Sequence record: NZ_CP069678.1
Reading direction: 5' to 3' (one strand)
From: a plasmid
Length of the DNA stretch: 64,000 bases
Made by a program: the position numbers and the translations under genes. The notes under the pieces are model-generated. The model saw nothing but the letters and a program-made list of their open reading frames with translations, was not told the DNA's origin and searched no databases. Below, piece after piece: positions 23,933 through 47,548 of the stretch (position 1 is the first letter of the stretch; each line of letters opens with the position of its first letter).

Positions 23933-24366
23933 GTGCACGAATCCTAGAGGCAGAATGTTTCTCCACATGCTTGTGGAGAAACCGCCGCATTTTGCCCGTT
24001 CTGTACGATACTCCGTAGCCAGAGATAAGATATTCTGTTGCTGTATGCTACATACATTACACTATACGAAATCAGGTCTGTTCAATCAGTAAGGAAATAA
24101 ACGGACAAACGTTATGTAACCCAGACAGAGATATATTGTCTGGGAAAATAGTGGCTTTTGTGGCGAAAACTAGTAAAACAGCAACCCGAACCACTTGATG
24201 TGCATCGTTTTTGATTATTCCCGTATACTCTTGCAGAAGGAGTTCTCCGTCGGGCTACTGTCATGGTTAATGCGGGGAATATGGCGACAATACAACACAC
24301 CTAAAAGAGTAATGGACAGATGAAGCGGTTTATTCATTTCCCATGATTCTGAGTACCTACCAAGTC

Positions 24367-25695
24367 CTGAGAGATCCCCTCATAATTTCCCCAAAACGTA
24401 ACCATGTGTGAATAGATTTTGAGTAAGCAGGGTTGCAGCCACGAGTGAGTCTTCCCTTGTTATTGTGTAGCCAGAATGCCGCAAAACTTCCATGCCTAAG
24501 CGAACTGTTGAGAGTACGTTTCGATTTCTGACTGTGTTAGCCTGGAAGTGCTTGTCCCAACCTTGTTTCTGAGCATGAACGCCCGCAAGCCAACATGTTA
24601 GTTGAAGCATCAGGGCGATTAGCAGCATGATATCAAAACGCTCTGAGCTGCTCGTTCGGCTATGGCGTAGGCCTAGTCCGTAGGCAGGACTTTTCAAGTC
24701 TCGGAAGGTTTCTTCAATCTGCATTCGCTTCGAATAGATATTAACAAGTTGTTTGGGTGTTCGAATTTCAACAGGTAAGTTAGTTGCTAGAATCCATGGC
24801 TCCTTTGCCGACGCTGAGTAGATTTTAGGTGACGGGTGGTGACAATGAGTCCGTGTCGAGCGCTGATTTTTTCGGCCTTTAGAGCGAGATTTATACAATA
24901 GAATTTGGCATGAGATTGGATTGCTTTTAGTCAGCCTCTTATAGCCTAAAGTCTTTGAGTGACTAGATGACATATCATGTAAGTTGCTGATAGGTTTCCA
25001 GTTTTCCGCTCCTAGGTCTGCATATTGTACTTTTCCTCTTACTCGACTTAACCAGTACCAACCCAGCTTCTCAACGGATTTATACCATGGCACTTTAAAG
25101 CCAGCATCACTGACAATGAGCGGTGTGGTGTTACTCGGTAGAATGCTCGCAAGGTCGGCTAGAAATTGGTCATGAGCTTTCTTTGAACATTGCTCTGAAA
25201 GCGGGAACGCTTTCTCATAAAGAGTAACAGAACGACCGTGTAGTGCGACTGAAGCTCGCAATACCATAAGCCGTTTTTGCTCACGGATATCAGACCAGTC
25301 AACAAGTACAATGGGCATCGTATTGCCCGAACAGATAAAGCTAGCATGCCAACGGTATACAGCGAGTCGCTCTTTGTGGAGGTGACGATTACCTAACAAT
25401 CGGTCGATTCGTTTGATGTTATGTTTTGTTCTCGCTTTGGTTGGCAGGTTACGGCCAAGTTCGGTAAGAGTGAGAGTTTTACAGTCAAGTAAGGCGTGGC
25501 AAGCCAACGTTAAGCTGTTGAGTCGTTTTAAGTGTAATTCGGGGCAGAATTGGTAAAGAGAGTCGTGTAAAATATCGAGTTCGCACATTTTGTTGTCTGA
25601 TTATTGATTTTTGGCGAAACCATTTGATCATATGACAAGATGTGTATCTACCTTAACTTAATGATTTTGATAAAAATCATTAGGGGATTCATCAG
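24367..25695 (-). mobile_element. IS10 (copy A, 1329 bp)
   Basis: 402-aa IS10 transposase at 24380-25588 (-). Outside-end sequence CTGATGAATCCCCTAATGATTTT (reverse complement) at 25695; inside end CTGAGAGATCCCC at 24367. 9-bp target duplication TACCAAGTC at 24358-24366 and 25696-25704. Confidence 0.9.
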
Positions 25696-25788
25696 TACCA
25701 AGTCTGAGTAACCACTTTTATACTTTTAATTTTCGTTCATTTAGCTATCGTTTAATTATTATCACATAGGATTCTGCCGTTTTTAACA

Positions 25789-26097
25789 ATGCAGGATAAT
25801 AAGATGAAAAAAATGTTATTTTCTGCCGCTCTGGCAATGCTTATTACAGGATGTGCTCAACAAACGTTTACTGTTGGAAACAAACCGACAGCAGTAACAC
25901 CAAAGGAAACCATCACTCATCATTTCTTCGTTTCGGGAATTGGACAAGAGAAAACTGTTGATGCAGCCAAAATTTGTGGCGGTGCAGAAAATGTTGTTAA
26001 AACAGAAACTCAGCAAACATTCGTAAATGGATTGCTCGGTTTTATCACTTTTGGCATCTATACTCCGCTGGAAGCCCGGGTATATTGCTCACAATAG
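25789..26097 (+). CDS. iss: Iss (increased serum survival) lipoprotein, lambda Bor homologue
   Basis: 102-aa ORF MQDNKMKKMLFSAALAMLITGCAQQ... with a lipobox (LITGC). The sequence matches Iss/Bor. Confidence 0.85.
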   Translation: MQDNKMKKMLFSAALAMLITGCAQQTFTVGNKPTAVTPKETITHHFFVSGIGQEKTVDAAKICGGAENVVKTETQQTFVNGLLGFITFGIYTPLEARVYCSQ

Positions 26098-26134
26098 TTG
26101 CCCATCGATATGGGGAGCTCATCTGCACTGTTCA

Positions 26135-29242: not shown

Positions 29243-30358
29243 ATGCGTATTTTGTTTGTAGGCCCGCCTCTCTATGGGCTGTTGTATCCTGTGCTGTCTC
29301 TGGCGCAGGCATTTCGCGTTAACGGTCATGAAGTGCTGATCGCCAGTGGAGGACAATTCGCACAAAAAGCGGCAGAGGCCGGGTTGGTGGTGTTTGACGC
29401 CGCACCCGGTCTGGATTCCGAAGCTGGTTACCGCCACCATGAGGCACAGCGGAAAAAAAGTAATATCGGAACCCAAATGGGCAACTTCTCATTCTTCAGC
29501 GAAGAAATGGCCGACCATCTGGTGGAGTTTGCCGGACACTGGCGGCCTGACCTCATCATCTACCCTCCGCTCGGAGTCATCGGGCCGCTGATTGCCGCCA
29601 AATATGATATACCGGTCGTGATGCAAACCGTAGGCTTCGGCCATACCCCCTGGCATATCAAGGGTGTAACGCGTTCGCTCACGGACGCCTATCGTCGCCA
29701 CAATGTGGGGGCCACACCACGTGATATGGCCTGGATCGACGTAACACCGCCGAGTATGAGCATTCTGGAAAACGACGGTGAACCCATTATTCCGATGCAG
29801 TACGTCCCGTATAACGGTGGCGCGGTGTGGGAACCATGGTGGGAGAGAAGGCCCGAGCGTAAACGTCTGCTGGTGAGTCTCGGCACTGTCAAACCGATGG
29901 TTGACGGCCTTGATCTAATCGCCTGGGTTATGGATTCTGCCAGTGAGGTCGATGCCGAGATCATCCTGCATATTTCAGCCAATGCGCGGTCCGATTTGCG
30001 CTCGCTGCCGTCAAATGTTCGCCTGGTTGACTGGATACCCATGGGTGTCTTCCTCAACGGCGCAGATGGTTTCATTCATCATGGCGGAGCAGGCAATACC
30101 CTGACAGCGCTACACGCTGGTATTCCACAAATCGTCTTCGGCCAGGGAGCCGATCGCCCGGTAAATGCCCGCGTTGTTGCCGAACGCGGCTGCGGGATTA
30201 TCCCTGGCGACGTCGGCCTGTCGAGTAACATGATCAATGCTTTCCTCAACAATCGCTCACTTCGCAAAGCCTCTGAAGAGGTAGCAGCGGAAATGGCGGC
30301 GCAACCCTGCCCAGGTGAAGTGGCGAAAAGCCTGATCACAATGGTACAGAAAGGGTAA
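29243..30358 (+). CDS. iroB: IroB, enterobactin C-glucosyltransferase
   Basis: 371 aa from MRILFVGPP. A GT1/MGT-family glycosyltransferase. First gene of a collinear iroBCDE cluster. Confidence 0.9.
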   Translation: MRILFVGPPLYGLLYPVLSLAQAFRVNGHEVLIASGGQFAQKAAEAGLVVFDAAPGLDSEAGYRHHEAQRKKSNIGTQMGNFSFFSEEMADHLVEFAGHWRPDLIIYPPLGVIGPLIAAKYDIPVVMQTVGFGHTPWHIKGVTRSLTDAYRRHNVGATPRDMAWIDVTPPSMSILENDGEPIIPMQYVPYNGGAVWEPWWERRPERKRLLVSLGTVKPMVDGLDLIAWVMDSASEVDAEIILHISANARSDLRSLPSNVRLVDWIPMGVFLNGADGFIHHGGAGNTLTALHAGIPQIVFGQGADRPVNARVVAERGCGIIPGDVGLSSNMINAFLNNRSLRKASEEVAAEMAAQPCPGEVAKSLITMVQKG

Positions 30359-30497
30359 CCACTACACCTTCATGATAATCATATGCCAGCACCCATCCAG
30401 GAGTCATGCATCCATAACAATGCGGGACCGGAGCGTGCTGGCTTTTTTGCGGAACGATCCGGCCAGTGGATCGTATTTTACAGACGGAGGAGGCTTA

Positions 30498-33400
30498 ATG
30501 CCTGCGAATCACACTCCCACACCGGCTCAGTCATGGATAGTTCGCCTAGCGCGCGTGTGCTGGGAAAGTAAGAAACTTAGTGTCATCGTGGTGGTAGCGT
30601 CAGTATCGACTATTTTGCTGGCTGCGCTGACGCCACTGCTGACAAGACAGGCTGTGAATGACGCACTGGCGGGCAATCCGGCCCGCCTGCCGTGGCTGGC
30701 CTGCGGGTTACTGTTGATCGCTTTTTTTGATTTCATCGGTAACTATGTGCGCCGTGGTTATGCCGGGATGCTCTCACTCTGGGTGCAGCATACCCTCAGA
30801 GGACGGGTATTCGACAGTATTCAGAAACTTGACGGCGCAGGCCAGGATGCGCTGCGCACCGGGCAGGTGATTTCACGGACCAACAGCGATCTGCAGCAGG
30901 TGCATACCCTGCTGCAGATGTGCCCGGTGCCGCTGGCAGTGTTCACTTATTACATTGCCGGCATTGCCGTGATGCTGTGGATGTCCCCTGCCATGACGCT
31001 TATCGTCGTGTGCGTACTGGTATGCCTGGCGATCACCGCGCTTCGTGCGCGTCGTAGGGTCTTCGCGCAAACCGGGCTGGCCTCGGACCAACTGGCGAAT
31101 CTCACCGAACATATACGCGAGGTGCTGGCACAGATCTCAGTGGTAAAATCCTGTGTGGCAGAGATGCGTGAAACGCACTGGCTCGATAGGCAGTCGCGGC
31201 AGATTGTGCGTGTACGCATCGGTGCGGTTATCTCGCAGGCGATGCCTGGGGCCACCATGCTGGCGCTACCGGTGCTCGGGCAAATCGTCCTGCTGTGCTA
31301 CGGCGGGTGGTCGGTCATGCACGGGCGGATCGATCTCGGTACCTTCGTTGCATTCGCCAGCTTCCTCGCGATGCTGACCGGGCCAACCCGCGTACTGGCA
31401 TCGTTTCTGGTTATCGCACAGCGCACTCAGGCGTCCGTGGAGCGGGTGTTTGCACTGATCGACACCCGTTCACAGATGGAGGACGGGACGGAGTCGATTA
31501 ACAGTCAGGTTGTCGGACTGGAACTGGAGAATATGAGCTTTGACTACCACCATGGCGACAGACATATCCTCAGCGATATCTCCTTTTCCCTGCGCGCCGG
31601 TGAAACCGTGGCGGTGGTGGGCGCATCGGGTTCAGGAAAATCGACCCTGTTGATGCTGCTGGCGCGTTTTTATGATCCCTGCTCCGGAAAGATATGGCTC
31701 AACACCAGCGAAGGCCGACAAAATCTTCGCGATATCAGACTGGAGGCGCTTCGTCGCCGGGTAGGCATCGTATTTGAAGATGCTTTTCTGTTTGCCGGTA
31801 CGGTGGCGGAAAATATCGCCTATGGCCACCCTCAGGCAACGGCGGACGACATTCGCCGTGCGGCAGCTGCTGCAGGAGCCAGCGATTTTATCAACGCCCT
31901 GCCGAAAGGCTTCGATAGCCTGTTAACCGAACGGGGTACGAATCTTTCCGGCGGGCAGAGGCAGCGAATAGCGCTGGCGCGGGCGCTCATTACTGCACCG
32001 GACGTGTTAATCCTGGATGATACCACCTCAGCGGTTGATGCTGTTACGGAAGCGGAGATTAATACCGCGCTGGGTCGCTATGCTGACGAAGGGCATATGC
32101 TGCTGGTGATTGCCCGACGGCGTTCAACACTTCAGCTAGCCAGCCGGGTTGTGGTGCTGGATAAGGGCCGTATGGTGGATACCGGAACCCCGGCAGAACT
32201 TGAAGCGCGCTGTCCGGCGTTCCGCGCACTGATGACCGGCGACAGCGATTTTCTGGCCACGTCCCACAATAGCCACAACGAATTGTGGCCGGCTGAACCA
32301 GCGACACAAGACGATGTAACGGATACGGGGGATAAAGGTTTTGTCGCCCGTATGACCCGCGTACCGGAAAATGCAGTACAGCAGGCGCTGGCCGGTAAAG
32401 GCCGCAAAGTCACGTCACTACTGAAGCCTGTGGCGTGGATGTTCGTCATCGCCGCTCTGCTGATCGCACTCGATTCTGCGGCAGGCGTAGGGGTGCTGAT
32501 ACTGTTGCAGCACGGCATTGACTCCGGTGTCGCCGCAGGCGATATGTCGACCATCGGCCTCTGTGCCCTGCTCGCCCTGAGCCTGGTCATTGTGGGCTGG
32601 TGCAGTTATTCTCTGCAGACGGTCTTCGCCGCCAGAGCGGCGGAATCAGTTCAGCATTCGGTGCGCTTGCGCAGCTTCGGCCATATGCTGCGTCTTGGAC
32701 TCCCCTGGCATGAAAAGCATGCCGATTCGCGTCTTACCCGCATGACCGTTGATGTGGACTCTCTCGCCCGCTTTCTGCAAAACGGCCTTGCCGGTGCGGC
32801 CACCAGTCTGGTGACGATGTTCGCAATCGCCGCCACCATGTTCTGGCTCGACCCGTTCCTGGCGCTGACGGCATTAAGCGCAGTGCCAGTGGCCGCACTG
32901 GCAACCATGATTTATCGCCGCCTCAGTACCCCTGCTTATGCACAGGCACGGCTGGAAATAGGCAAAGTCAACAGCACCCTGCAGGAAAAAGTCTCTGGCA
33001 TGCGTGTCGTGCAATCGCATGGTCAGCAGGAACTGGAGGGCGCCCGGCTGCGCGCGTTATCGGAGCGTTTCCGCGCAACCCGTGTGCGAGCACAAAAATA
33101 CCTTGCAGTCTATTTTCCGTTCCTGACATTCTGCACCGAGGCCTCCTATGCCGCTGTTCTGTTAGTGGGAGCTTCGCAGGTCGCCGCTGGAGAAATGACT
33201 GCCGGGGTACTGGCGGCTTTCTTCCTGTTGCTGGGGCAATTCTATGGGCCAGTGCAGCAGTTATCAGGGATTGTCGACGCCTGGCAGCAGGCGACAGCCA
33301 GCGGCAAACATATTGATGAACTACTGGCGACAGAAGGCACTGAGAACCTCGGCTCCTCTTCGGTCCTCCCTGTCACCGGTGCACTGCATCTTGATGAGGT

Positions 33401-34157
33401 CACGTTCAGTTATCCCGACAGTCACGAGCCAGCTCTGAACAAACTTACCCTGACGATCCCAGAGGGAATGGTTGTTGCGGTCGTCGGTCGCAGCGGTGCG
33501 GGTAAGTCGACGCTGATTAAGCTGATTGCCGGGTTGTATTTCCCCACGCACGGCAACATCAGAATCGGTGTGCAAATGCTCGATGATGCCTCGCTCGCTG
33601 AGTATCGTCGCCAGATTGGGCTTGTCGATCAGGATGTAGCACTGTTTAGTAGTGATATTGCAGAAAACATTCGTTATTCACGGCCATCCGCCACCAATGA
33701 AGACGTTGAAATTGCCTCACAGCGGGCAGGGCTGTATGAGATGGTGTGCAATCTGCCGCAGGGATTCCGGACACCAGTGAATAACGGCGGAGCCGATCTG
33801 TCCGCAGGTCAGCGCCAGTTGATTGCGCTGTCCCGCGCGCAACTGGCTAATGCTCACATCCTGCTGCTCGACGAAGCCACGTCATGTCTGGATCGCACAT
33901 CCGAAGAACGACTGATGTCATCGTTAACAGATGTCGTGCATGCCGGGAAGCACTCGGCGCTGATTGTTGCACATCGTCTGACCACCGCGCAACGCTGCGA
34001 TCTGATTGCCGTTATTGATAAGGGGTTACTTGCGGAATACGGAACCCACGAACAGCTGTTATCTGCGGGCGGCCTCTATACCCGCTTATGGCATGACAGC
34101 GTCAGCAGTACTGCGCTCCATCGCCAGCACAACATGAAGGAGGAAACCCCGGGATAG
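30498..34157 (+). CDS. iroC: IroC, ABC exporter (tandem TMD-NBD) for salmochelin
   Basis: Two six-TM domains and two NBDs (GASGSGKST/LSGGQRQR and GRSGAGKST/LSAGQRQL). Start chosen at MPANHT; the ORF opens at 30372. Confidence 0.85.
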   Translation: MPANHTPTPAQSWIVRLARVCWESKKLSVIVVVASVSTILLAALTPLLTRQAVNDALAGNPARLPWLACGLLLIAFFDFIGNYVRRGYAGMLSLWVQHTLRGRVFDSIQKLDGAGQDALRTGQVISRTNSDLQQVHTLLQMCPVPLAVFTYYIAGIAVMLWMSPAMTLIVVCVLVCLAITALRARRRVFAQTGLASDQLANLTEHIREVLAQISVVKSCVAEMRETHWLDRQSRQIVRVRIGAVISQAMPGATMLALPVLGQIVLLCYGGWSVMHGRIDLGTFVAFASFLAMLTGPTRVLASFLVIAQRTQASVERVFALIDTRSQMEDGTESINSQVVGLELENMSFDYHHGDRHILSDISFSLRAGETVAVVGASGSGKSTLLMLLARFYDPCSGKIWLNTSEGRQNLRDIRLEALRRRVGIVFEDAFLFAGTVAENIAYGHPQATADDIRRAAAAAGASDFINALPKGFDSLLTERGTNLSGGQRQRIALARALITAPDVLILDDTTSAVDAVTEAEINTALGRYADEGHMLLVIARRRSTLQLASRVVVLDKGRMVDTGTPAELEARCPAFRALMTGDSDFLATSHNSHNELWPAEPATQDDVTDTGDKGFVARMTRVPENAVQQALAGKGRKVTSLLKPVAWMFVIAALLIALDSAAGVGVLILLQHGIDSGVAAGDMSTIGLCALLALSLVIVGWCSYSLQTVFAARAAESVQHSVRLRSFGHMLRLGLPWHEKHADSRLTRMTVDVDSLARFLQNGLAGAATSLVTMFAIAATMFWLDPFLALTALSAVPVAALATMIYRRLSTPAYAQARLEIGKVNSTLQEKVSGMRVVQSHGQQELEGARLRALSERFRATRVRAQKYLAVYFPFLTFCTEASYAAVLLVGASQVAAGEMTAGVLAAFFLLLGQFYGPVQQLSGIVDAWQQATASGKHIDELLATEGTENLGSSSVLPVTGALHLDEVTFSYPDSHEPALNKLTLTIPEGMVVAVVGRSGAGKSTLIKLIAGLYFPTHGNIRIGVQMLDDASLAEYRRQIGLVDQDVALFSSDIAENIRYSRPSATNEDVEIASQRAGLYEMVCNLPQGFRTPVNNGGADLSAGQRQLIALSRAQLANAHILLLDEATSCLDRTSEERLMSSLTDVVHAGKHSALIVAHRLTTAQRCDLIAVIDKGLLAEYGTHEQLLSAGGLYTRLWHDSVSSTALHRQHNMKEETPG

Positions 34158-34260
34158 TTACTGGACACGTAATGTATTAAAAACACAGTCAGAAGCGGCG
34201 GTACCGTGAATAGCCGCTTTAATTATTTATACTGACATCCTTAATTTTTAAAGAGTATGA

Positions 34261-35490
34261 ATGCTGAACATGCAACAACATCCCTCTGCTATCGCCAGCC
34301 TGCGCAACCAACTGGCAGCGGGCCACATTGCTAACCTTACTGACTTCTGGCGCGAAGCTGAGTCGCTGAATGTTCCTCTTGTGACGCCAGTCGAAGGAGC
34401 GGAAGATGAGCGAGAAGTTACCTTTCTGTGGCGCGCCCGACATCCTCTGCAGGGCGTTTATCTGCGTCTGAACCGGGTGACGGATAAAGAGCACGTAGAA
34501 AAAGGAATGATGAGCGCCCTTCCCGAAACGGATATCTGGACACTGACACTGCGTTTACCCGCAAGTTACTGCGGCTCCTATTCGCTGCTGGAAATCCCCC
34601 CCGGCACTACGGCTGAGACGATTGCACTGTCCGGAGGCCGTTTTTCCACCCTCGCCGGAAAAGCCGATCCGCTAAACAAAATGCCGGAGATCAACGTTCG
34701 GGGGAACGCAAAGGAATCAGTGCTGACACTTGATAAAGCTCCCGCCCTGTCGGAATGGAACGGCGGCTTCCACACCGGACAACTGCTTACCTCCATGCGC
34801 ATTATCGCCGGGAAATCTCGCCAGATTCGGCTCTATATTCCGGATGTTGATATTTCTCAGCCCCTCGGGCTGGTCGTGCTGCCCGATGGTGAAACCTGGT
34901 TTGATCACCTTGGCGTATGCGCGGCAATTGACGCCGCCATAAATAACGGGCGCATCGTGCCCGTGGCTGTACTGGGCATTGACAACATTAATGAACATGA
35001 ACGCACTGAGATACTCGGCGGGCGCAGCAAACTGATAAAGGATATCGCCGGACATCTGCTGCCGATGATTCGCGCTGAACAACCGCAGCGTCAGTGGGCA
35101 GACCGTTCGCGCACAGTGCTGGCCGGGCAGAGCCTCGGCGGGATCAGTGCGCTAATGGGGGCTCGTTACGCACCGGAAACGTTCGGTCTGGTGCTCAGCC
35201 ACTCTCCTTCAATGTGGTGGACGCCAGAAAGAACCAGTCGACCAGGCTTGTTCAGCGAAACCGATACCTCATGGGTGAGTGAGCATCTGCTTTCTGCCCC
35301 ACCGCAGGGCGTACGTATCAGCCTGTGCGTGGGATCGCTGGAAGGTTCGACAGTGCCTCACGTTCAGCAGCTTCACCAGCGGCTGATTACCGCTGGCGTC
35401 GAAAGCCATTGCGCAATTTACACCGGTGGTCACGATTACGCATGGTGGCGCGGTGCACTGATTGACGGGATTGGTTTACTACAGGGTTGA
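34261..35490 (+). CDS. iroD: IroD, Fes-like salmochelin/enterobactin esterase
   Basis: 409-aa alpha/beta hydrolase with GQSLGG around the nucleophile. Position in the iro cluster. Confidence 0.85.
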   Translation: MLNMQQHPSAIASLRNQLAAGHIANLTDFWREAESLNVPLVTPVEGAEDEREVTFLWRARHPLQGVYLRLNRVTDKEHVEKGMMSALPETDIWTLTLRLPASYCGSYSLLEIPPGTTAETIALSGGRFSTLAGKADPLNKMPEINVRGNAKESVLTLDKAPALSEWNGGFHTGQLLTSMRIIAGKSRQIRLYIPDVDISQPLGLVVLPDGETWFDHLGVCAAIDAAINNGRIVPVAVLGIDNINEHERTEILGGRSKLIKDIAGHLLPMIRAEQPQRQWADRSRTVLAGQSLGGISALMGARYAPETFGLVLSHSPSMWWTPERTSRPGLFSETDTSWVSEHLLSAPPQGVRISLCVGSLEGSTVPHVQQLHQRLITAGVESHCAIYTGGHDYAWWRGALIDGIGLLQG

Positions 35491-35574
35491 GTTGACCCAC
35501 AAACACTTTCAGGAAACGGTACAGACTTCCCGAATAAATCAAATTGTCACCTGCGGAAAAGGAATAATCATCAG

Positions 35575-36531
35575 ATGTATGCCCGCGAGTATCGCTCAAC
35601 ACGCCCGCATAAAGCGATTTTCTTTCATCTTTCTTGCCTCACCCTTATCTGTAGTGCGCAAGTTTATGCGAAGCCGGATATGCGGCCACTGGGGCCGAAT
35701 ATAGCCGATAAAGGCTCCGTGTTTTACCATTTCAGCACCACCTCTTTCGACTCTGTCGATGGCACACGCCATTATCGGGTATGGACGGCCGTGCCGAATA
35801 CAACCGCACCGGCATCGGGTTACCCGATTTTATATATGCTTGACGGTAACGCAGTTATGGACCGCCTGGATGACGAACTGCTCAAACAATTGTCAGAAAA
35901 AACACCGCCAGTGATCGTGGCTGTCGGGTATCAGACCAACCTCCCTTTCGATCTCAACAGCAGGGCTTACGACTATACGCCAGCAGCAGAAAGCAGAAAA
36001 ACAGATCTCCACTCAGGGCGTTTTAGCCGTAAGAGTGGTGGCAGCAACAACTTCCGCCAGTTACTGGAAACGCGTATTGCCCCAAAAGTGGAACAGGGAC
36101 TGAATATCGATCGGCAACGCCGCGGCTTATGGGGGCACTCCTACGGCGGCCTCTTCGTGCTGGATTCCTGGCTGTCCTCCTCTTACTTCCGGTCGTACTA
36201 CAGTGCCAGCCCGTCGTTGGGCAGAGGTTATGATGCTTTGCTAAGCCGCGTTACGGCGGTTGAGCCTCTGCAATTCTGCGCCAAACACCTGGCGATAATG
36301 GAAGGCTCGGCGACACAGGGTGATAACCGGGAAACGCATGCTGTCGGGGTGCTGTCGAAAATTCATACCACCCTCACTATACTGAAAGATAAAGGCGTCA
36401 ATGTCGTATTTTGGGATTTCCCCAACTTGGGACACGGGCCGATGTTCAATGCCTCCTTTCGCCAGGCACTGTTAGATATCAGTGGTGAAAACGCAAATTA
36501 CACAGCAGGTTGTCATGAGTTAAGCCACTAA
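35575..36531 (+). CDS. iroE: IroE, periplasmic trilactone hydrolase
   Basis: 318 aa with a signal/anchor, GHSYGG around the nucleophile. Confidence 0.85.
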   Translation: MYAREYRSTRPHKAIFFHLSCLTLICSAQVYAKPDMRPLGPNIADKGSVFYHFSTTSFDSVDGTRHYRVWTAVPNTTAPASGYPILYMLDGNAVMDRLDDELLKQLSEKTPPVIVAVGYQTNLPFDLNSRAYDYTPAAESRKTDLHSGRFSRKSGGSNNFRQLLETRIAPKVEQGLNIDRQRRGLWGHSYGGLFVLDSWLSSSYFRSYYSASPSLGRGYDALLSRVTAVEPLQFCAKHLAIMEGSATQGDNRETHAVGVLSKIHTTLTILKDKGVNVVFWDFPNLGHGPMFNASFRQALLDISGENANYTAGCHELSH

Positions 36532-36575
36532 ACACTGCCCGCTTTTACGCGGGCAGTACGCCTGAAACACTACGA

Positions 36576-38753
36576 TCAGAATGATGCGGTAACTCCGGCA
36601 TAGTAAGCCCGGCCTGGCTCGTTATAGGTATTCGCCCCTTCAGAAGATCGGAAGATCTGTTTATTGAGGATATTACTGACGCCGACATTAAGACGCAGAT
36701 TTTTATTAATATCGTAATTGAAGTTCGTCCCCACCAGTGAATAAGCGCCCAGCTCTTTACCTGACAGACCGCCAGTATCTTCACTGCGGGTTTCCGCATG
36801 AGTACGCGGTTTTTGTCTGCCATATAACGTCCAGTTGACGCTGGCAGAAAACGCCTGGGTGATGGTCCAGTTAAGCGAGTTATTGATAGTATATTTCGGG
36901 ATGACCGACAGAGGATTACCGGTGTCTTTTTGCTCCGAAGTGATCATCCATGTGGCATTGGTATTCCAGTTCAGACGATCTTTCACCAGTGGGAAAGACA
37001 TACTGGCTTCGATACCGTCCACCAGAGCTTTCCCGCCATTCTGCCACTTGAGGATATATGCGCCTGAAGCGGTTTGCCCGATAACGTTATCCCCGGCCAC
37101 GATCTTATTCTGGTAATCATTGCGGAAGTAGGTCACACTTGCGTGGTAATCTTCCCAGGTGAACTCCAGCCCAATTTCTTTATTGACGCTGATTTCCGGA
37201 TCGAGATCTTTATTACCGATCAGGTAGCACCCGCCTGATGTAATATCTTTTGGACAGCCATTGCCTTTCGAGTAGAGCAGATAGCCTTCACTGGATTGAT
37301 ACAGGTTTGGGGCTTTAAAGGTTCGGGCAACCCCTGCTTTGACTTTGAAATAATCGCCCAATTCCTGCGAAAGATTCAGACTGGGGCTGAAGTTCCCGCC
37401 GGAGTCGCTGAGATAATCAAAGCGCAGGCCGGGAATGATATTCGTGCCAGGAACCGGCTCAATGTTATCTTCAATATACAGCGCACTGATTTGAGAATGA
37501 TTTTTACTGCTGCGATCCGCAGCAGAGCCAGAAATACCGCTGATATCACTGTCATTCACCGTCAGGCTGGTAGAGGAAGGATCATCGAGCTTATCGCGGT
37601 TCCACTCTGCACCAACGGTCAGCGTTTGATCAACCATCACATTCAAAGGAATATTAAGCTCGCCGCTGGTTCGCCAGGAACTCAGGCGATTGGTCGTAAA
37701 CTTTTCACCCGCTAAAATACGCCCTTCACCACCGCCGGATAATCCTTCATTCATGCGGGTATTATTGGTTTTCTCGTAATAAACACCAAAGCGACTTTGT
37801 CCCCAGTCCCAGATACCATTATGCGTAATGCCATAATTCTGTCGGTACAGGCGGTTCGTCTCTTTGCCGGATTTTGCCAGGCTTTCGGTAACTGCACTGG
37901 AAGAACTGTTTTGCGTATCGCCCGCATAGATATTCCCCTGGCGGCTATATCCGGCTTCGAAATCGAGAATCTGCTGCGGATTTAATTTCCACGAGACAAC
38001 GCCGTTAATATCTTTGTTACGTACCCCTTCATGCCCGGCTGCGTTTTTCGTACCGACCGGAGAATTAATATCCCAACTGTCAGCATCCGTTTTATTCAGG
38101 TTACCATACAAACGCGTGGTAAGAGCATTACCAGCCAGAGGCCCACTAAGGCTGAAATTGGCGCGACGCGTAGCGCCCTCATCGCTACTTTCCGGCTGAT
38201 TGGTGTATAACGACAGCGAACCGTGCCAGTCGTTGGTGGGACGTTTGGTAATGATGTTCACCACCCCCCCGGCTGCCCCCGAACCGTAGCGCGCCGCCGC
38301 AGGGCCGCGGATCACTTCAATACGCTCAACCTGTTCCGGTGGCACCCAGTTGGTGTCACCGCGGGTATCACGCTCTCCACGCCAGCTATAACGCACGGAG
38401 TTACGTGACGTCACCGGTACACCATCAATTAAAATTAAGGTGTTTTCCGGCCCCATACCACGAATATCGATCTGGCGGTTGTTACCGCGTGTGCCCGAGG
38501 CGCTATTGCCGGTAAGATTGACGCCAGGCATTTTACGAATAATATCTGAAAGGTCGTTTACCGGAGGGGTCTTTTTAATATCCTCGCTGGTAATAACCGA
38601 CACGCCCGGCTGCTGTTTTAATACCTGCTCAGCGGTGGCTTCCACCACCAGAGTCTCGTCATTATCATCGTCGGAGGATTTGGCTACTGATACCTGGCTA
38701 TTCAACCCAACCAGGAGCACAGTTAGCGACCAGAGGATTTTGTTAATTCTCAT
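36576..38753 (-). CDS. iroN: IroN, TonB-dependent salmochelin receptor
   Basis: 725 aa with a signal peptide, TonB box (ETLVVEA), plug and 22-strand barrel, and a C-terminal F. Convergent with iroBCDE. Confidence 0.9.
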   Translation of the reverse strand: MRINKILWSLTVLLVGLNSQVSVAKSSDDDNDETLVVEATAEQVLKQQPGVSVITSEDIKKTPPVNDLSDIIRKMPGVNLTGNSASGTRGNNRQIDIRGMGPENTLILIDGVPVTSRNSVRYSWRGERDTRGDTNWVPPEQVERIEVIRGPAAARYGSGAAGGVVNIITKRPTNDWHGSLSLYTNQPESSDEGATRRANFSLSGPLAGNALTTRLYGNLNKTDADSWDINSPVGTKNAAGHEGVRNKDINGVVSWKLNPQQILDFEAGYSRQGNIYAGDTQNSSSSAVTESLAKSGKETNRLYRQNYGITHNGIWDWGQSRFGVYYEKTNNTRMNEGLSGGGEGRILAGEKFTTNRLSSWRTSGELNIPLNVMVDQTLTVGAEWNRDKLDDPSSTSLTVNDSDISGISGSAADRSSKNHSQISALYIEDNIEPVPGTNIIPGLRFDYLSDSGGNFSPSLNLSQELGDYFKVKAGVARTFKAPNLYQSSEGYLLYSKGNGCPKDITSGGCYLIGNKDLDPEISVNKEIGLEFTWEDYHASVTYFRNDYQNKIVAGDNVIGQTASGAYILKWQNGGKALVDGIEASMSFPLVKDRLNWNTNATWMITSEQKDTGNPLSVIPKYTINNSLNWTITQAFSASVNWTLYGRQKPRTHAETRSEDTGGLSGKELGAYSLVGTNFNYDINKNLRLNVGVSNILNKQIFRSSEGANTYNEPGRAYYAGVTASF

Positions 38754-39618: not shown

Positions 39619-40653
39619 TTAAAGCTGTGCTGCCAGAGTTGATAATAATTGTTCTGTCTGTTGCCATGATATGCATTCATCAGTAACAGACTGACCATAC
39701 TCTAGCGGAAAACTATCGGATTGTTTTCCATCTTGTAAAAAGCTTTCCACCATAATGCCAGCTACATATCCTGGTATTTTTTTCCGATTATCTATAACTT
39801 GACGTGCAACGGAAATTTGCCGTTTAGCCACTTTACCGCTATTACCATGGCTACAATCAATTATCAGACGATGGTTAATGCCCTCATCATGCATTAATTT
39901 CACTGCCTTAGTTATATCAGACAAACCATAGTTAGGTTCTCTACCTCCACGTAATATTAGATGTCCATGTGGATTGCCATCGGTTAATAGTGTAGATATA
40001 CTATTTGTTAAAGATGTCATATATACAATATGTTGTTCACGGGCTGCAATAATAGCGTCAATAGCTAAGTTAATATTTCCATCAGTACTGTTTTTAAATC
40101 CAACTGGACAATGTAAACCAGACGCAAGTTGACGATGCGTTTGTGATTCAGTGGTTCTGGCACCAATAGCACCCCAACATATTAAATCAGCAATATAGGG
40201 AGTAAGAAAAGGATCGAGGAATTCTGTAGCGGTTGCGACACGCATCGTTGTGATTGAAGACAAACACTGGCGAGCATATCGTATCCCTTTCTCAACATCA
40301 TAACTTCCATTTAGATCAGGATCGTGCATTATTCCCTTCCAGCCTTTACGGGTTCGAGGTTTCTCAAAATAAGTGCGCATTACAATGTACATTTTCGATA
40401 AGTACTTATTCTGTAATACGAACAATCGCTTCGCATAATCAACTGCGGCCTGAACGTCATGGATTGAGCATGGACCAACAATCACAAGTAAGCGAGGATC
40501 TTTTCCCAGCAAAATATTCGCTATAATATCTCGTTGCAGAGAGATCCATGTTACGGTTTCTTCCGATACTGCGATTTCTTTATGAATCTCGCCCACAGTG
40601 GGTAAACTGCCAAGCAACTTCCCGCGGTAGATTAATTTACTAGCTGACTGCAT
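39619..40653 (-). CDS. class I-alpha (AroG/F/H-type) DAHP synthase
   Basis: 344 aa, collinear with E. coli AroG (VIVGPCSIHD, KPRT, GARTTESQ). SD AGGAG 7 nt upstream. Confidence 0.85.
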   Translation of the reverse strand: MQSASKLIYRGKLLGSLPTVGEIHKEIAVSEETVTWISLQRDIIANILLGKDPRLLVIVGPCSIHDVQAAVDYAKRLFVLQNKYLSKMYIVMRTYFEKPRTRKGWKGIMHDPDLNGSYDVEKGIRYARQCLSSITTMRVATATEFLDPFLTPYIADLICWGAIGARTTESQTHRQLASGLHCPVGFKNSTDGNINLAIDAIIAAREQHIVYMTSLTNSISTLLTDGNPHGHLILRGGREPNYGLSDITKAVKLMHDEGINHRLIIDCSHGNSGKVAKRQISVARQVIDNRKKIPGYVAGIMVESFLQDGKQSDSFPLEYGQSVTDECISWQQTEQLLSTLAAQL

Positions 40654-40699
40654 CTTGTCTCCTAAAAGCGCTATTTCAGACCATCAGTTGCACACAGTA

Positions 40700-42677: not shown

Positions 42678-43952
42678 TTGTTTCGCCAGGATGCTTTAGA
42701 AAACAGAAAAATGAAGTGGCAGGGACGGGCAATATTACTTCCCGGAATACCACTGTGGTTAATCATGCTGGGAAGCATTGTGTTTATTACGGCATTTCTG
42801 ATGTTCATTATTGTTGGTACCTATAGCCGCCGTGTTAATGTCAGTGGTGAGGTCACAACCTGGCCAAGAGCTGTCAATATATATTCAGGTGTACAGGGAT
42901 TTGTTGTCAGGCAGTTTGTTCATGAAGGGCAGTTGATAAAAAAAGGGGATCCTGTTTATCTGATTGACATCAGTAAAAGTACACGCAATGGTATTGTCAC
43001 TGATAATCATCGCCGGGATATAGAAAACCAGCTGGTTCGTGTGAACAACATTATTTCCCGTCTGGAAGAAAGTAAAAAAATAACGCTAGATACCCTGGAA
43101 AAACAACGTCTGCAATACACAGATGCGTTCCGTCGCTCATCAGACATTATACAGCGTGCAGAGGAAGGGATAAAAATAATGAAAAATAATATGGAGAATT
43201 ACAGATACTATCAGTCAAAAGGACTGATTAATAAAGATCAATTAACTAACCAAGTTGCATTATATTATCAACAACAAAACAACCTTCTCAGTCTGAGCGG
43301 ACAAAATGAACAAAATGCCCTGCAGATAACCACTCTGGAGAGTCAGATTCAGACTCAGGCAGCAGATTTTGATAATCGTATCTATCAGATGGAACTGCAA
43401 CGACTCGAATTGCAGAAAGAACTGGTTAACACTGATGTGGAAGGCGAAATCATTATCCGGGCGTTGTCTGACGGGAAAGTTGACTCCCTGAGTGTCACTG
43501 TAGGGCAAATGGTCAATACCGGAGACAGCCTTCTGCAGGTTATTCCTGAGAACATTGAAAACTATTATCTTATTCTCTGGGTCCCGAATGATGCTGTTCC
43601 TTATATTTCGGCTGGTGACAAAGTGAATATTCGTTATGAAGCCTTCCCCTCAGAAAAATTTGGGCAGTTCTCTGCTACGGTTAAAACTATATCCAGGACT
43701 CCTGCGTCAACACAGGAAATGTTGACCTATAAGGGCGCACCTCAAAATACGCCGGGTGCCTCTGTTCCCTGGTATAAAGTCATTGCGACGCCTGAAAAGC
43801 AGATAATCAGGTATGACGAAAAATACCTCCCTCTGGAAAATGGAATGAAAGCCGAAAGTACACTATTTCTGGAAAAAAGGCGTATTTACCAGTGGATGCT
43901 TTCTCCTTTCTATGACATGAAACACAGTGCAACAGGACCGATCAATGACTAA
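42678..43952 (+). CDS. cvaA: CvaA, colicin V secretion membrane-fusion protein (HlyD family)
   Basis: Matches CvaA. An alternative in-frame start lies at 42711 (MKWQG). The 3' end overlaps cvaB by 8 nt. Confidence 0.85.
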
Positions 43953-46041
43953 CAGGAATTTCAGACAAATTATAAATCTGCTTGATTTGCGCTGGCAACG
44001 TCGTGTTCCGGTTATTCATCAGACGGAGACCGCTGAATGTGGACTGGCCTGCCTAGCAATGATATGCGGTCATTTTGGTAAGAATATTGACCTGATATAT
44101 CTTCGCCGGAAGTTTAATCTCTCTGCCCGTGGAGCAACCCTTGCAGGAATCAATGGAATAGCGGAGCAACTGGGGATGGCCACCCGGGCTCTTTCACTGG
44201 AGTTGGATGAACTTCGAGTCCTCAAAACGCCGTGTATTCTCCACTGGGATTTCAGTCACTTCGTCGTTCTGGTCAGCGTAAAGCGTAACCGTTATGTACT
44301 GCATGATCCGGCCAGGGGCATAAGATATATCAGCCGGGAGGAAATGAGCCGATATTTTACAGGCGTTGCACTTGAGGTCTGGCCCGGAAGTGAATTCCAG
44401 TCGGAAACCCTGCAGACCCGCATAAGTCTTCGTTCACTGATTAACAGTATTTACGGTATTAAAAGAACGCTGGCGAAAATTTTCTGTCTGTCAGTTGTAA
44501 TTGAAGCAATCAATCTGCTAATGCCGGTGGGGACACAGCTGGTTATGGATCATGCTATTCCTGCGGGGGACAGAGGGCTACTGACGCTAATTTCTGCTGC
44601 TCTTATGTTTTTTATATTACTCAAAGCTGCAACGAGTACGCTGCGCGCATGGTCTTCACTGGTTATGAGCACGCTCATCAATGTACAGTGGCAGTCGGGG
44701 CTGTTCGATCATCTTCTCAGACTACCGCTGGCGTTTTTTGAACGCCGAAAATTAGGTGATATCCAGTCACGTTTTGACTCCCTTGACACATTGAGGGCCA
44801 CATTTACCACCAGTGTGATCGGGTTCATAATGGACAGCATTATGGTTGTCGGTGTTTGTGTGATGATGCTGTTATACGGAGGATATCTCACCTGGATAGT
44901 TCTCTGCTTTACCACAATTTACATTTTTATTCGACTGGTGACATACGGCAATTACCGACAGATATCAGAAGAATGTCTTGTCAGGGAGGCCCGTGCCGCC
45001 TCCTATTTTATGGAAACATTATATGGTATTGCCACGGTAAAAATCCAGGGGATGGTCGGAATTCGGGGAGCACACTGGCTTAATATGAAAATAGATGCGA
45101 TAAATTCGGGTATTAAGCTAACCAGGATGGATTTGCTCTTCGGAGGAATAAATACCTTTGTTACCGCCTGTGATCAGATTGTAATTTTATGGCTGGGAGC
45201 AGGCCTTGTGATCGATAATCAGATGACAATAGGAATGTTTGTAGCGTTTAGTTCTTTTCGTGGGCAGTTTTCGGAAAGAGTTGCCTCTCTGACCAGTTTT
45301 CTTCTTCAGCTAAGAATAATGAGTCTGCACAATGAGCGCATTGCAGATATTGCATTACATGAAAAGGAGGAAAAGAAACCTGAAATTGAAATCGTTGCTG
45401 ATATGGGGCCAATATCCCTGGAAACCAATGGTTTAAGCTATCGTTATGACAGTCAGTCAGCACCGATATTCAGTGCTCTGAGTTTATCTGTAGCTCCGGG
45501 GGAAAGTGTGGCTATAACTGGTGCTTCCGGTGCGGGAAAAACCACATTAATGAAAGTACTATGTGGACTATTTGAACCTGATAGCGGGAGGGTACTGATA
45601 AATGGTATAGATATACGCCAAATTGGAATAAATAATTATCACCGGATGATAGCCTGTGTTATGCAGGATGACCGGCTATTTTCAGGCTCAATTCGTGAAA
45701 ATATCTGTGGTTTTGCAGAGGAAATGGATGAAGAGTGGATGGTAGAATGTGCCAGAGCAAGTCATATTCATGATGTTATAATGAATATGCCAATGGGATA
45801 TGAAACATTAATAGGTGAACTTGGGGAAGGTCTTTCTGGCGGTCAAAAACAGCGTATATTTATTGCACGAGCCTTATACCGGAAACCAGGAATATTATTT
45901 ATGGATGAGGCAACCAGTGCTCTTGATTCAGAGAGTGAACATTTCGTGAATGTTGCCATAAAAAACATGAATATCACCAGGGTAATTATTGCACACAGAG
46001 AAACAACGTTGAGAACTGTTGATAGAGTTATTTCTATTTAA
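43945..46041 (+). CDS. cvaB: CvaB, colicin V ABC exporter with N-terminal C39 peptidase domain
   Basis: 698 aa from MTNRNF. C39 catalytic Cys ([13 protein letters not shown]), six TM segments, NBD ([17 protein letters not shown]). Confidence 0.9.
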
Positions 46042-46166
46042 ACCATAGAGGAATTACAAGCGTATGAGGAATATTTCTTCCTGTTATAATTCCTCGTTAT
46101 GCTCAGATATCTGTTGGAGGTGGAATGGAAGATAGACAATCCACCAAGAAGAAATATCATTCTGTG

Positions 46167-47495
46167 CTGATGAATCCCCTAATGATTTTTATCAAAATCA
46201 TTAAGTTAAGGTAGATACACATCTTGTCATATGATCAAATGGTTTCGCCAAAAATCAATAATCAGACAACAAAATGTGCGAACTCGATATTTTACACGAC
46301 TCTCTTTACCAATTCTGCCCCGAATTACACTTAAAACGACTCAACAGCTTAACGTTGGCTTGCCACGCCTTACTTGACTGTAAAACTCTCACTCTTACCG
46401 AACTTGGCCGTAACCTGCCAACCAAAGCGAGAACAAAACATAACATCAAACGAATCGACCGATTGTTAGGTAATCGTCACCTCCACAAAGAGCGACTCGC
46501 TGTATACCGTTGGCATGCTAGCTTTATCTGTTCGGGCAATACGATGCCCATTGTACTTGTTGACTGGTCTGATATCCGTGAGCAAAAACGGCTTATGGTA
46601 TTGCGAGCTTCAGTCGCACTACACGGTCGTTCTGTTACTCTTTATGAGAAAGCGTTCCCGCTTTCAGAGCAATGTTCAAAGAAAGCTCATGACCAATTTC
46701 TAGCCGACCTTGCGAGCATTCTACCGAGTAACACCACACCGCTCATTGTCAGTGATGCTGGCTTTAAAGTGCCATGGTATAAATCCGTTGAGAAGCTGGG
46801 TTGGTACTGGTTAAGTCGAGTAAGAGGAAAAGTACAATATGCAGACCTAGGAGCGGAAAACTGGAAACCTATCAGCAACTTACATGATATGTCATCTAGT
46901 CACTCAAAGACTTTAGGCTATAAGAGGCTGACTAAAAGCAATCCAATCTCATGCCAAATTCTATTGTATAAATCTCGCTCTAAAGGCCGAAAAAATCAGC
47001 GCTCGACACGGACTCATTGTCACCACCCGTCACCTAAAATCTACTCAGCGTCGGCAAAGGAGCCATGGATTCTAGCAACTAACTTACCTGTTGAAATTCG
47101 AACACCCAAACAACTTGTTAATATCTATTCGAAGCGAATGCAGATTGAAGAAACCTTCCGAGACTTGAAAAGTCCTGCCTACGGACTAGGCCTACGCCAT
47201 AGCCGAACGAGCAGCTCAGAGCGTTTTGATATCATGCTGCTAATCGCCCTGATGCTTCAACTAACATGTTGGCTTGCGGGCGTTCATGCTCAGAAACAAG
47301 GTTGGGACAAGCACTTCCAGGCTAACACAGTCAGAAATCGAAACGTACTCTCAACAGTTCGCTTAGGCATGGAAGTTTTGCGGCATTCTGGCTACACAAT
47401 AACAAGGGAAGACTCACTCGTGGCTGCAACCCTGCTTACTCAAAATCTATTCACACATGGTTACGTTTTGGGGAAATTATGAGGGGATCTCTCAG
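46167..47495 (+). mobile_element. IS10 (copy B, 1329 bp), inverted relative to copy A
   Basis: Identical 402-aa transposase at 46274-47482. Outside end at 46167, inside end at 47495. 9-bp duplication CATTCTGTG at 46158-46166 and 47496-47504. It is inserted between the 3' ends of cvaB and cvaC. Confidence 0.9.
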
Positions 47496-47548
47496 CATTC
47501 TGTGTGGATTGTCCAATAACTGTTCTTTCTTATATTAAATAATACTAT

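Follow-up and report, generated by a model that had tools for sequence, protein, structure and literature searches.

The bracketed virulence region

We analyzed a 64,000-nucleotide stretch of the plasmid NZ_CP069678.1 (referred to here as the window), in which two copies of the insertion sequence IS10, A and B, bracket a block of virulence genes. The block contains iss, the salmochelin genes iroBCDEN, a DAHP synthase gene, and the colicin V export genes cvaAB. The features of the region are as follows.

24358..24366, no strand: left 9-bp target duplication of copy A, TACCAAGTC (one copy in the uninterrupted site of pS138-1 and of 554 plasmids)
24367..25695, minus strand: IS10 copy A, an IS10-Left allele of 1329 bp (24367 is the inside end, 25695 the outside end)
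24380..25588, minus strand: transposase gene of copy A, 402 amino acids (open reading frame list; D97, D161, E292, Y285, R288, and K299 present)
25581..25650, plus strand: RNA-OUT of copy A (Rfam RF00240, 97.3 bits; transcribed from pOUT in the direction of the outside end, hence toward iss)
25696..25704, no strand: right 9-bp target duplication of copy A, TACCAAGTC (direct reading and script)
25804..26097, plus strand: iss, increased serum survival lipoprotein (positions carried over from the annotation of pS138-1)
29243..36531, plus strand: iroB, iroC, iroD, and iroE, salmochelin synthesis, export, and esterases (open reading frames and pS138-1 annotation)
36576..38753, minus strand: iroN, salmochelin receptor (open reading frames and pS138-1 annotation)
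39619..40653, minus strand: 3-deoxy-7-phosphoheptulonate (DAHP) synthase gene (open reading frames and pS138-1 annotation)
42678..46041, plus strand: cvaA (HlyD family) and cvaB (peptidase/ABC exporter), colicin V export, intact (open reading frames and pS138-1 annotation)
46158..46166, no strand: left 9-bp target duplication of copy B, CATTCTGTG (single occurrence at the empty site in 350 plasmids)
46167..47495, plus strand: IS10 copy B, an IS10-Left allele of 1329 bp (46167 is the outside end, 47495 the inside end)
46212..46281, minus strand: RNA-OUT of copy B (Rfam RF00240, 97.3 bits; leftward, antisense to the cvaB 3' end)
46274..47482, plus strand: transposase gene of copy B, 402 amino acids (open reading frame list; same protein as in copy A)
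47496..47504, no strand: right 9-bp target duplication of copy B, CATTCTGTG (direct reading and script)
47549..48074, minus strand: cvaC (colicin V precursor, 103 amino acids) and cvi (immunity, 78 amino acids), intact and outside the bracketed segment (open reading frame translations)

Direct reading and a script showed that copy A is the exact reverse complement of copy B over the 1329 bp of each, with the same translations, in agreement with a first-pass annotation of this DNA that had described two full-length elements with identical 402-amino-acid transposases. A repeat search returned them as the single long inverted pair of the window (24367-25698 and 46164-47495), with arms of 1332 nt that overrun each copy by 3 nt and are 20,465 bp apart, while the spacing between the IS10 copies themselves is 20,471 bp (25696-46166). 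The inside end (CTGAGAGATCCCC, bearing a GATC) lies at 24367 in copy A and at 47495 in copy B, and the outside end (CTGATGAATCCCC) at 25695 and 46167, respectively. The enclosed segment is thus faced by the outside ends of both copies, as had been noted at first pass.

The terminal inverted repeats, read at both ends, are imperfect in both copies, as is typical of IS10. They are intact, together with both GATC sites (nt 67 and 1320), which are the Dam sites of pIN and of the inside end. The 402-amino-acid transposase (scanned as the copy B protein) matched the IS4-family profile NCBIfam NF033591 with 402 bits against a cutoff of 152, and the residues of its DDE and Y-x2-R-x3-E-x6-K motifs are intact (D97/D161/E292/Y285/R288/K299 in the numbering of Tn10 transposase). 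A check of the ends, the DDE residues, and the open reading frame found no inactivating changes. Both RNA-OUT matches lie well above the gathering score of 41 of the Rfam model. In their size (∼1.33 kb), ends, 9-bp duplications, 402-amino-acid DDE transposase, and RNA-OUT, both copies agree with IS10 of the IS4 family. In the NCBI annotation, the element carries the name “ISVsa5 family” transposase.

The distance from the outside end of copy A to the iss ATG is 108 bp, and a promoter scan between the two found no strong sigma-70 match. At the other end of the block, the gap between cvaB and cvaC, first put at 126 bp, is corrected to 169 bp for the spacer before insertion: 116 bp separate the cvaB stop (46041) from the duplication, the 9-mer itself follows, and a further 44 bp lead to the cvaC stop (47549). 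A stretch of ∼125 bp reaches only from the cvaB stop to where IS10 starts. The two genes are convergent and neither is interrupted by copy B, and a terminator scan found no terminator-like hairpin broken by the insertion; around both sites, the promoter and terminator scans were of little information.

Origin of the two insertions

PLSDB contains 554 plasmids with an uninterrupted site A and 350 with an uninterrupted site B. Given that each 9-mer is present in single copy at the uninterrupted site in sibling plasmids, both 9-mers (TACCAAGTC twice and CATTCTGTG twice) are true target site duplications, with one pair belonging to each IS10 copy, as first described; the expected chance of an exact 9-mer repeat is ∼4e-6 per site. 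The two target sites match the IS10 hotspot consensus, NGCTNAGCN, poorly (3/6 and 2/6 positions).

As the reference for the uninterrupted arrangement, we used pS138-1 (OY754448.1; IncFIB/IncFIC), which represents the ColV/ColBM IncF virulence region of avian and extraintestinal pathogenic E. coli and shares gene order and orientation with the window, yet lacks the two IS10 insertions, which are private to the window's plasmid. Three stretches of the window are collinear with it: 1-24366 (aligned as a single piece, with 100.0% identity as printed), 25696-46166 (1 mismatch in 20,471 bp), and 47496-56925 (1 gap in 9,431 bp). A separate alignment of positions 21858-24371 showed 1 mismatch and 1 gap, which gives a total of 4 differences over positions 1-56925 when the IS10 copies and the second 9-mers are left out. 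This comparison and the pS138-1 annotation also confirm the gene content assigned earlier to the block (iss-iroBCDEN-DAHP synthase-cvaAB) and place it in the standard ColV order of iss, iroBCDEN, cvaA, cvaB, cvaC, and cvi on an IncF backbone. Outside this region, the siblings carry a Tn10 remnant after blaTEM-1, where the window's plasmid instead has a mer/IS26/sul3 region.

IS10 was found at site B in 0 of 72,556 plasmids and 0 of 5,426 complete E. coli genomes, and exact-match scans of GTDB representative genomes and JGI metagenomes returned neither the junction between cvaB and the outside end nor that between the outside end and iss. Four candidate matches were inspected and rejected. Strain 2196 (NZ_CM142896.1) appeared to have kept the right junction of site B, but its annotation shows another arrangement, in which IS10 adjoins iroN and is followed by a truncated DAHP synthase gene, IS1A, and a truncated cvaC. 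Two of the site A candidates have IS10 downstream of iss, and in another, which has a prophage iss, it lies farther upstream within a phage tail gene.

We consider it very probable that two IS10-Left copies inserted separately and recently, by cut-and-paste transposition, into a standard ColV region and that the pair is not a working virulence transposon. One IS10 would have landed 108 bp upstream of iss and the other in the 169 bp that separated the convergent cvaB and cvaC. Separate simple insertions, as proposed at first pass, follow from the duplication that each copy has of its own and from the presence of both empty sites in hundreds of plasmids. The accompanying claim that no inversion or deletion has occurred since is likewise borne out, because the interior is collinear with pS138-1. 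The 100% identity between the copies would also be expected if the arrangement were an artefact or the product of a single rearrangement, i.e., an assembly error, an intramolecular replicative transposition, or the arrival of one preformed transposon. Yet an assembly error would not create perfect 9-bp duplications of sequences that are single copy at the empty sites, and had a replicative intramolecular inversion made the second copy, a single duplication would be shared out over both IS10 copies and the interior, which is collinear, would be reversed. A unit that arrived preformed would have the same 9-mer at both outer ends, where two different ones are found, and would not leave interior and flanks contiguous in hundreds of IS10-free plasmids. 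The duplications, the collinearity, and the contiguous empty sites thus already refute these scenarios, to which we attach next to no probability. The separate insertions are ordinary insertion sequence traffic.

To assign the allele, we relied on the gene order of Tn10 in R100 and on the published order IS10L...tetR, tetB, IS10R (PMC2258188). Both window copies are identical over 1329/1329 nt to the IS10 on the gltS/tetR side of the R100 Tn10 (R100 36132-37460) and differ by 15 nt and 4 amino acids from that on the tetD side (43950-45278), which is IS10-Right. The element itself is therefore identical to IS10-Left of Tn10 (R100/NR1), although here it is present as two solitary copies outside Tn10; a search of the window for a Tn10 core as donor found none, the R100 Tn10 matches being the two IS10 copies only. 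The first-pass term transposase proficient stands insofar as ends, DDE residues, and open reading frame are intact, but calls for qualification with respect to the allele, since IS10-Left, 4 amino acids off IS10-Right, is weak or inactive according to the literature (inactive in PMC11148124). The allele is nevertheless widespread in nature and clearly does move, as indicated by the two fresh insertions described here, an IS10L insertion observed in NEB5alpha (PMC11481808), and the presence of the exact 402-amino-acid protein on at least 1000 contigs. The likely source of both insertions is a resident IS10-Left, because the only intact IS10 of the sibling Tn10 remnant is this exact allele: pS138-1 has one intact IS10, 100% identical to the window copies, and an IS10-Right reduced to nt 638-1329.

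Mobility of the block compared with Tn10

The likeness to Tn10 that was drawn at first pass holds for one feature, namely, that two inverted IS10 copies surround passenger genes, but the ends are the other way around. Tn10 has outside ends as its termini and inside ends next to its cargo, whereas the unit that carries the virulence genes terminates in inside ends (24367 and 47495). Tn10 also relies on IS10-Right, in contrast to the two IS10-Left copies in the window, and is found in many contexts with one shared 9-bp duplication, whereas the window unit has TACCAAGTC on its left and CATTCTGTG on its right in a single known context. Of what marks a Tn10-type composite, we thus found the inverted IS10 pair and neither terminal outside ends, nor a shared duplication, nor multiple contexts. 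Tn10 is 9.3 kb long versus 23.1 kb for the window unit. The unit that is bounded by outside ends, and hence truly Tn10-like, is the rest of the plasmid.

Formally, the 23.1-kb virulence unit may be regarded as a composite, an “inside-out” Tn10: with both outside ends turned toward the cargo, its own termini would be two inside ends. Given that it is bounded by inside ends, it is equivalent to what would be the inverse transposon in a replicon that carries Tn10; for DNA flanked by Tn10, inverse transposition was reportedly described by Harayama et al. in 1984. There is a parallel to Tn10-promoted deletion and inversion as well, in that an inward-facing pair of ends could target the remainder of the molecule, with loss of the DNA between them. 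In Tn10, these are the inside ends and the DNA lost is tet, whereas in the window they are the outside ends and the DNA at risk is iss-iro-cvaAB.

Several known properties of IS10 bear on whether such a unit could move. [quoted passage not shown] In the window, the inside ends would need an outside-end partner to form a synaptic complex, and their Dam-methylated GATC would count against movement of the unit. The transposase, expected to act chiefly on close ends, would face inside ends ∼23 kb apart. Given these traits of the inside ends and the distance between them, solitary IS10 movement would be expected to be many orders of magnitude more frequent than that of the entire unit, and movement of the block as a unit is unlikely. 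A search for relocated copies also went against the earlier suggestion that the block may be mobilizable as a unit, since none at a new location was found in PLSDB, complete E. coli genomes, GTDB representatives, or JGI metagenomes.

A working composite would require that paired inside ends carry iss-iro-cvaAB to other replicons, chiefly after conjugation, when the DNA is hemimethylated. The completeness of both IS10 copies, with intact ends, DDE residues, and open reading frames, speaks for it, and so does the plasmid family, which is conjugative (siblings typed MOBF/MPF_F): hemimethylation after transfer could raise inside-end activity, in line with the documented Dam control. Against it stand the geometry inverse to that of Tn10, inside ends that do not pair with each other in vitro, a length of 23 kb, and an allele reported to be inactive. 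Moreover, the two different outer 9-mers imply that the unit never inserted here as a unit, neither a relocated copy nor the site B junction was seen in the four collections, and cvaC and cvi would stay behind. We consider a working composite very improbable and retain the reading of two separate insertions.

Likelier consequences and the probable repeated use of site A

Judging from the arrangement of the two copies, the block is likelier to be inverted or lost than to move as a unit, and transcription from pOUT outward into iss is a likelier consequence as well. RecA-dependent recombination between the 1.3-kb inverted repeats could flip the 20.5-kb block, and transposase pairing of the inward-facing outside ends could result in deletion or inversion. 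Since a deletion of this type would remove the DNA between the ends, the virulence block would be lost, not spread. For comparison, Tn10-promoted rearrangements occur at ∼1e-5 versus ∼1e-7 for transposition (PMC1676026). Transcription from pOUT would leave copy A toward iss and, from copy B, could enter the cvaB 3' end in antisense orientation.

Site A has probably been used by IS10 more than once. The ColBM-type plasmid pN17EC0320-2 (CP043741.1), from ground turkey, has two identical IS10 copies with a duplication each, which bracket iss-iro-DAHP synthase and colicin V genes as in the window, and one of them lies exactly at site A with the same duplication and orientation as copy A. The two plasmids differ in the allele, which is IS10-Right plus C203A in pN17EC0320-2 and IS10-Left in the window, and in the orientation of the pair, with direct repeats in the former and inverted copies in the latter. 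The second copy of pN17EC0320-2 lies beyond cvi (duplication GACTCTATA), in contrast to copy B between cvaB and cvaC, and cvaAB, intact in the window, is mostly missing there. A further case is an O111:H11 prophage with IS10-Right at about the same place upstream of the iss/bor homologue and in the same orientation. Compared with common ancestry of the site A IS10 and that of CP043741.1 and later allele conversion, independent insertion is the more parsimonious account, because the site A copy of each plasmid is identical to the second IS10 of the same plasmid.

This raises the question of whether copy A is a regulatory insertion under selection, with copy B as a bystander, in which repeated landing and pOUT transcription toward iss would raise expression and serum resistance. 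Pointing in this direction are the different allele at exactly site A in CP043741.1, where the allele shared with its second IS10 argues for an independent hit, and the prophage insertion near the equivalent place in the same orientation. The RNA-OUT/pOUT of copy A is aimed at iss from 108 bp upstream of the ATG, and outward read-through from IS10 has been documented to drive the expression of adjacent genes (PMC11481808). On the other hand, there are three cases only, whose agreement in orientation would arise by chance in about 1 in 4. The prophage site matches the IS10 hotspot perfectly (GGCTGAGCA, 6/6), so that target preference alone explains that case, other plasmids carry IS10 downstream of iss, and the site has been kept empty in 554 plasmids. 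RNA-OUT, in addition, has been reported to end at nt 47, within IS10 (PMC5006887). Taken together, we find selection on copy A unlikely, and just as doubtful is the corresponding view of site A as a recurrent, selected landing site at which IS10 serves as a portable promoter that raises expression of the serum survival lipoprotein. The reuse of this nonconsensus site is the one mild surprise of the region and the only element that might repay a small experiment.

If the block did move as a unit, this would open an exit route for iss and the salmochelin genes from ColV plasmids, but the evidence argues against it. Under the favored reading of two separate insertions, the block may instead invert or be lost in this plasmid lineage, for which the two private insertions can be used as a marker. 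The insertions also add one more case in which the supposedly defective IS10-Left is mobile in nature.

Structure and plasmid context of the IS10 pair

When the entire window was searched for repeats, a single long one emerged, with inverted arms spanning 24367-25698 and 46164-47495. It comprises two IS10 copies, copy A upstream of iss and copy B in the cvaB-cvaC spacer, and a script comparison showed copy A to be the exact reverse complement of copy B.

IS10 insertions and surrounding features in window coordinates (IS10 limits from reading of the junctions and script)
24367-25695, minus strand: IS10 copy A, 1329 bp
46167-47495, plus strand: IS10 copy B, 1329 bp
24358-24366 and 25696-25704: 9-bp duplication of copy A, TACCAAGTC
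46158-46166 and 47496-47504: 9-bp duplication of copy B, CATTCTGTG
24380-25588, minus strand: transposase ORF of copy A, 402 aa
46274-47482, plus strand: transposase ORF of copy B, 402 aa
24367 (copy A) and 47495 (copy B): GATC-bearing inside end, CTGAGAGATCCCC
25695 (copy A) and 46167 (copy B): outside end, CTGATGAATCCCC
25581-25650, plus strand: RNA-OUT of copy A (Rfam)
46212-46281, minus strand: RNA-OUT of copy B (Rfam)
47549-47860, minus strand: cvaC, intact, just outside the bracketed segment
47838-48074, minus strand: cvi, intact, just outside the bracketed segment
1-24366: pS138-1 positions 1-24366, in one piece, 100.0% as printed
25696-46166: collinear with pS138-1, 1 mismatch in 20,471 bp
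47496-56925: collinear with pS138-1, 1 gap in 9,431 bp

Given the positions of the outside ends (25695 and 46167), both face the enclosed 20.5 kb. The copies, duplications, ORFs, and end orientation described in the first-pass annotation are all present, and the elements are intact, as it had claimed: the ORFs are unbroken, as are the terminal 23 bp at both IS10 ends, both Dam sites (the pIN site at nt 67 and the inside-end site at nt 1320), and the catalytic transposase residues D97, D161, and E292, together with the Y285/R288/K299 motif. One figure had to be corrected, in that the cvaB-cvaC gap, given as 126 bp, was a spacer of 169 bp (116 + 9 + 44) before insertion.

The window covers the initial 64 kb of an IncF ColV plasmid, whose closest relative found is pS138-1 (OY754448.1). 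According to the annotation of this sibling plasmid, the bracketed segment contains iss, IS481-family remnants, iroBCDE, iroN, a DAHP synthase gene, three small genes, cvaA, and cvaB. Alignment of 21858-24371 with pS138-1 gave 1 mismatch and 1 gap. The interior and both flanks have the same orientation relative to pS138-1, in agreement with the earlier claim of no rearrangement since insertion; no inversion between the IS10 copies has become fixed in this plasmid sequence.

Past blaTEM-1/Tn2, the window (56926-64000) carries a truncated merA, an EAL-domain gene, a transposase-like ORF, IS26, an SDR oxidoreductase gene, and sul3. In sibling plasmids, a remnant of Tn10 (tetB) occupies this region instead; the break near 56926 lies within ~3 bp of the start of the truncated IS10-Right in pS138-1. 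Rfam also matched the Hfq-binding small RNA STnc490 at 15259-15382 (plus strand, 135 bits) and at 26362-26483 (minus strand, 90.8 bits), the latter directly downstream of iss within the bracketed segment, and the ALIL pseudoknot, classed as a cis-regulatory element, at 8048-8164 (plus strand, 120 bits). An "AL1L pseudoknot" is annotated in another record inside a programmed-frameshift IS3-family transposase gene, and we take the ALIL match to be probably the same kind of signal.

Allele and distribution of the insertions

Both copies are identical (1329/1329) to the gltS/tetR-side IS10 of Tn10 in R100 and differ from the tetD-side copy at 15 nucleotides, four of which alter the protein (window to right copy: I266V, S381L, T389A, and V398A). 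Given the published Tn10 order of IS10L...tetR, tetB, IS10R (PMC2258188), the window allele is IS10-Left. Published work assigns function to IS10-Right (PMC5006887) and describes IS10-Left as inactive (PMC11148124). That the IS10-Left allele does move in nature is shown by the two fresh insertions here, by an IS10L jump onto a plasmid seen in NEB5alpha (PMC11481808), by solitary IS10 copies at unrelated sites that encode the protein of the IS10-Left type (WP_001352368.1, the accession also assigned to the R100 left copy), and by the presence of the exact window transposase in at least 1000 contigs. Queried with copy B, the 5426 complete E. coli genomes yielded IS10 in 2347 cases, at up to 45 places per genome; 2910 records matched, and the best copy in 1857 of them was ≥99% identical to the window IS10-Left (IS10-Right, 98.9%). 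The supposedly defective IS10-Left thus appears to be the commoner allele among these genomes. The exact IS10-Right transposase bears the UniRef name "Uncharacterized protein DKFZp686P13170 ... Q6AW98_HUMAN," which evidently reflects contaminating bacterial IS10 that was submitted as the product of a human cDNA.

No Tn10 core is present within the 64-kb window. In pS138-1, a Tn10 remnant retains an intact IS10 that is 100% identical to the window copies, with IS10-Right reduced to nt 638-1329, and the IS10-Left of such a remnant is a plausible donor.

To search PLSDB for empty target sites, we rebuilt each from 250 bp on either side of one copy of the 9-mer. Uninterrupted site A (the target of copy A) was found in 554 plasmids and site B (the target of copy B) in 350, which, together with a separate duplication around each copy, upholds the claim of two independent insertions. 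A 24.9-kb query found many ColV plasmids with three segments of 100% identity that together extend over 22,271 bp, the length left once two IS10 copies and two 9-mers are subtracted from the query. Filled site B occurred in none of 72,556 plasmids and none of 5,426 complete E. coli genomes, and its left (cvaB-outside end) junction had 0 exact matches in GTDB representative genomes and JGI metagenomes. Site A filled by the IS10-Left allele was likewise absent from the plasmids and the complete E. coli genomes, and its outside end-iss junction had no exact match in the GTDB representatives and the JGI metagenomes. Judged by these comparisons, both insertions are recent and private to this plasmid.

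Insertion upstream of iss and possible local effects

The ColBM-type plasmid pN17EC0320-2 (CP043741.1), from ground turkey, has site A occupied by an IS10 at exactly the position, and with the duplication TACCAAGTC and the orientation, seen in the window; all 16 differences between the two plasmids at this site lie inside IS10. Its second IS10 is located beyond cvi, with the duplication GACTCTATA.

IS10 copies of pN17EC0320-2 (CP043741.1 coordinates)
33858-35186 and 15185-16513: in direct orientation

These two copies are mutually identical and represent IS10-Right plus C203A. Since the site-A copy matches the second copy of its own plasmid in each case, the simplest reading is that site A was entered independently in the two plasmids. 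Site A, which agrees at only 3/6 positions with the IS10 hotspot consensus (NGCTNAGCN), would then have been used twice. An IS10-Right in an O111:H11 lambdoid prophage (NZ_CP077491.1, 2683-4011) occupies roughly the equivalent position upstream of an iss/bor homologue, again with the outside end toward iss.

Such recurrence could reflect selection for iss expression driven by pOUT, the outward promoter of IS10, as two different alleles occupy site A in identical orientation and the prophage copy agrees with them. However, the prophage target is a perfect hotspot, with GGCTGAGCA duplicated, and a sample of three is too small to distinguish selection from target preference; we consider selected insertion unlikely. 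In a further record, NZ_CM142896.1 (E. coli strain 2196, a 3.46-Mb "chromosome"), positions 1-42753 form a ColBM-plasmid-like block, the product of plasmid integration or of a mis-join, with iss, iro, truncated DAHP synthase and cvaC genes, colicin B/M/Ia genes, a class 1 integron, and, downstream of iroN, an IS10 encoding the IS10-Left-type protein.

In the window, pOUT of copy A is directed at iss, whose ATG lies 108 bp past the IS10 end, and that of copy B is directed antisense into the cvaB 3' end. Outward IS10 read-through that switches on adjacent genes is documented (references gathered in PMC11481808), but the antisense RNA-OUT itself is said to stop at nt 47 (PMC5006887). In simple scans, no terminator-like hairpin was broken by the site-B insertion, and the stretch from copy A to iss gave no strong match to a promoter. 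It is possible that the IS10 copies alter expression of nearby genes. A terminator-like hairpin with a T-run is located at 47619-47638 (plus strand), within cvaC and in antisense to it; if its usual role is to halt cvaAB read-through, copy B now intervenes and has placed it 1.34 kb further from cvaB.

End geometry and mobility of the enclosed block

In Tn10, the outside ends are the transposon termini and the inside ends adjoin the cargo, whereas the window pair is reversed. Both termini of the virulence-block unit (24367-47495; 23,129 bp) are inside ends, and it is the remainder of the plasmid that the outside ends delimit. The "Tn10-like geometry" proposed earlier is therefore the inverse, an "inside-out" arrangement. 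The inside end carries a Dam site, and methylation of its GATC reportedly blocks transposase action (Roberts et al., 1985); for distance, Morisato et al. in 1983 are said to have reported ~40% loss per kb. It is established that Dam methylation keeps IS10 activity low (PMC5006887; PMC5371812), that the IHF site sits on the outside end (PMC3159471), and that the transposase favors nearby ends, with success dropping steeply with the distance between them (PMC1676026). For these reasons, the inside-out unit makes a poor transposon. With its own second end 1.3 kb off and its partner ~23 kb away, each IS10 should move singly far more often than the pair moves jointly.

A relocated composite would retain both junctions between outside end and cargo, and neither was found in any new context in the searched collections, which thus offer no indication of past movement of the block with IS10 ends. 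In Tn10, transposase-promoted rearrangements are ~100-fold more frequent than transposition (PMC1676026). Going beyond the sequence itself, we infer that, by analogy, the two inward-facing outside ends could pair and attack the plasmid backbone, discarding the iss-iro-cvaAB block, and that homologous recombination across the 1.3-kb inverted repeats could flip it.

The composite-transposon interpretation of the first-pass annotation thus stands for independent insertion, intact elements, and lack of later rearrangement, and is not supported for the Tn10-like geometry or for the mobility it implies for the block, given its inside-end termini, the distance, and the lack of a relocated copy in the searched collections. 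The arrangement amounts to routine IS10 traffic within a familiar virulence region, a kind of system already known, and its value is as a lineage marker for, and a minor source of instability in, this plasmid.
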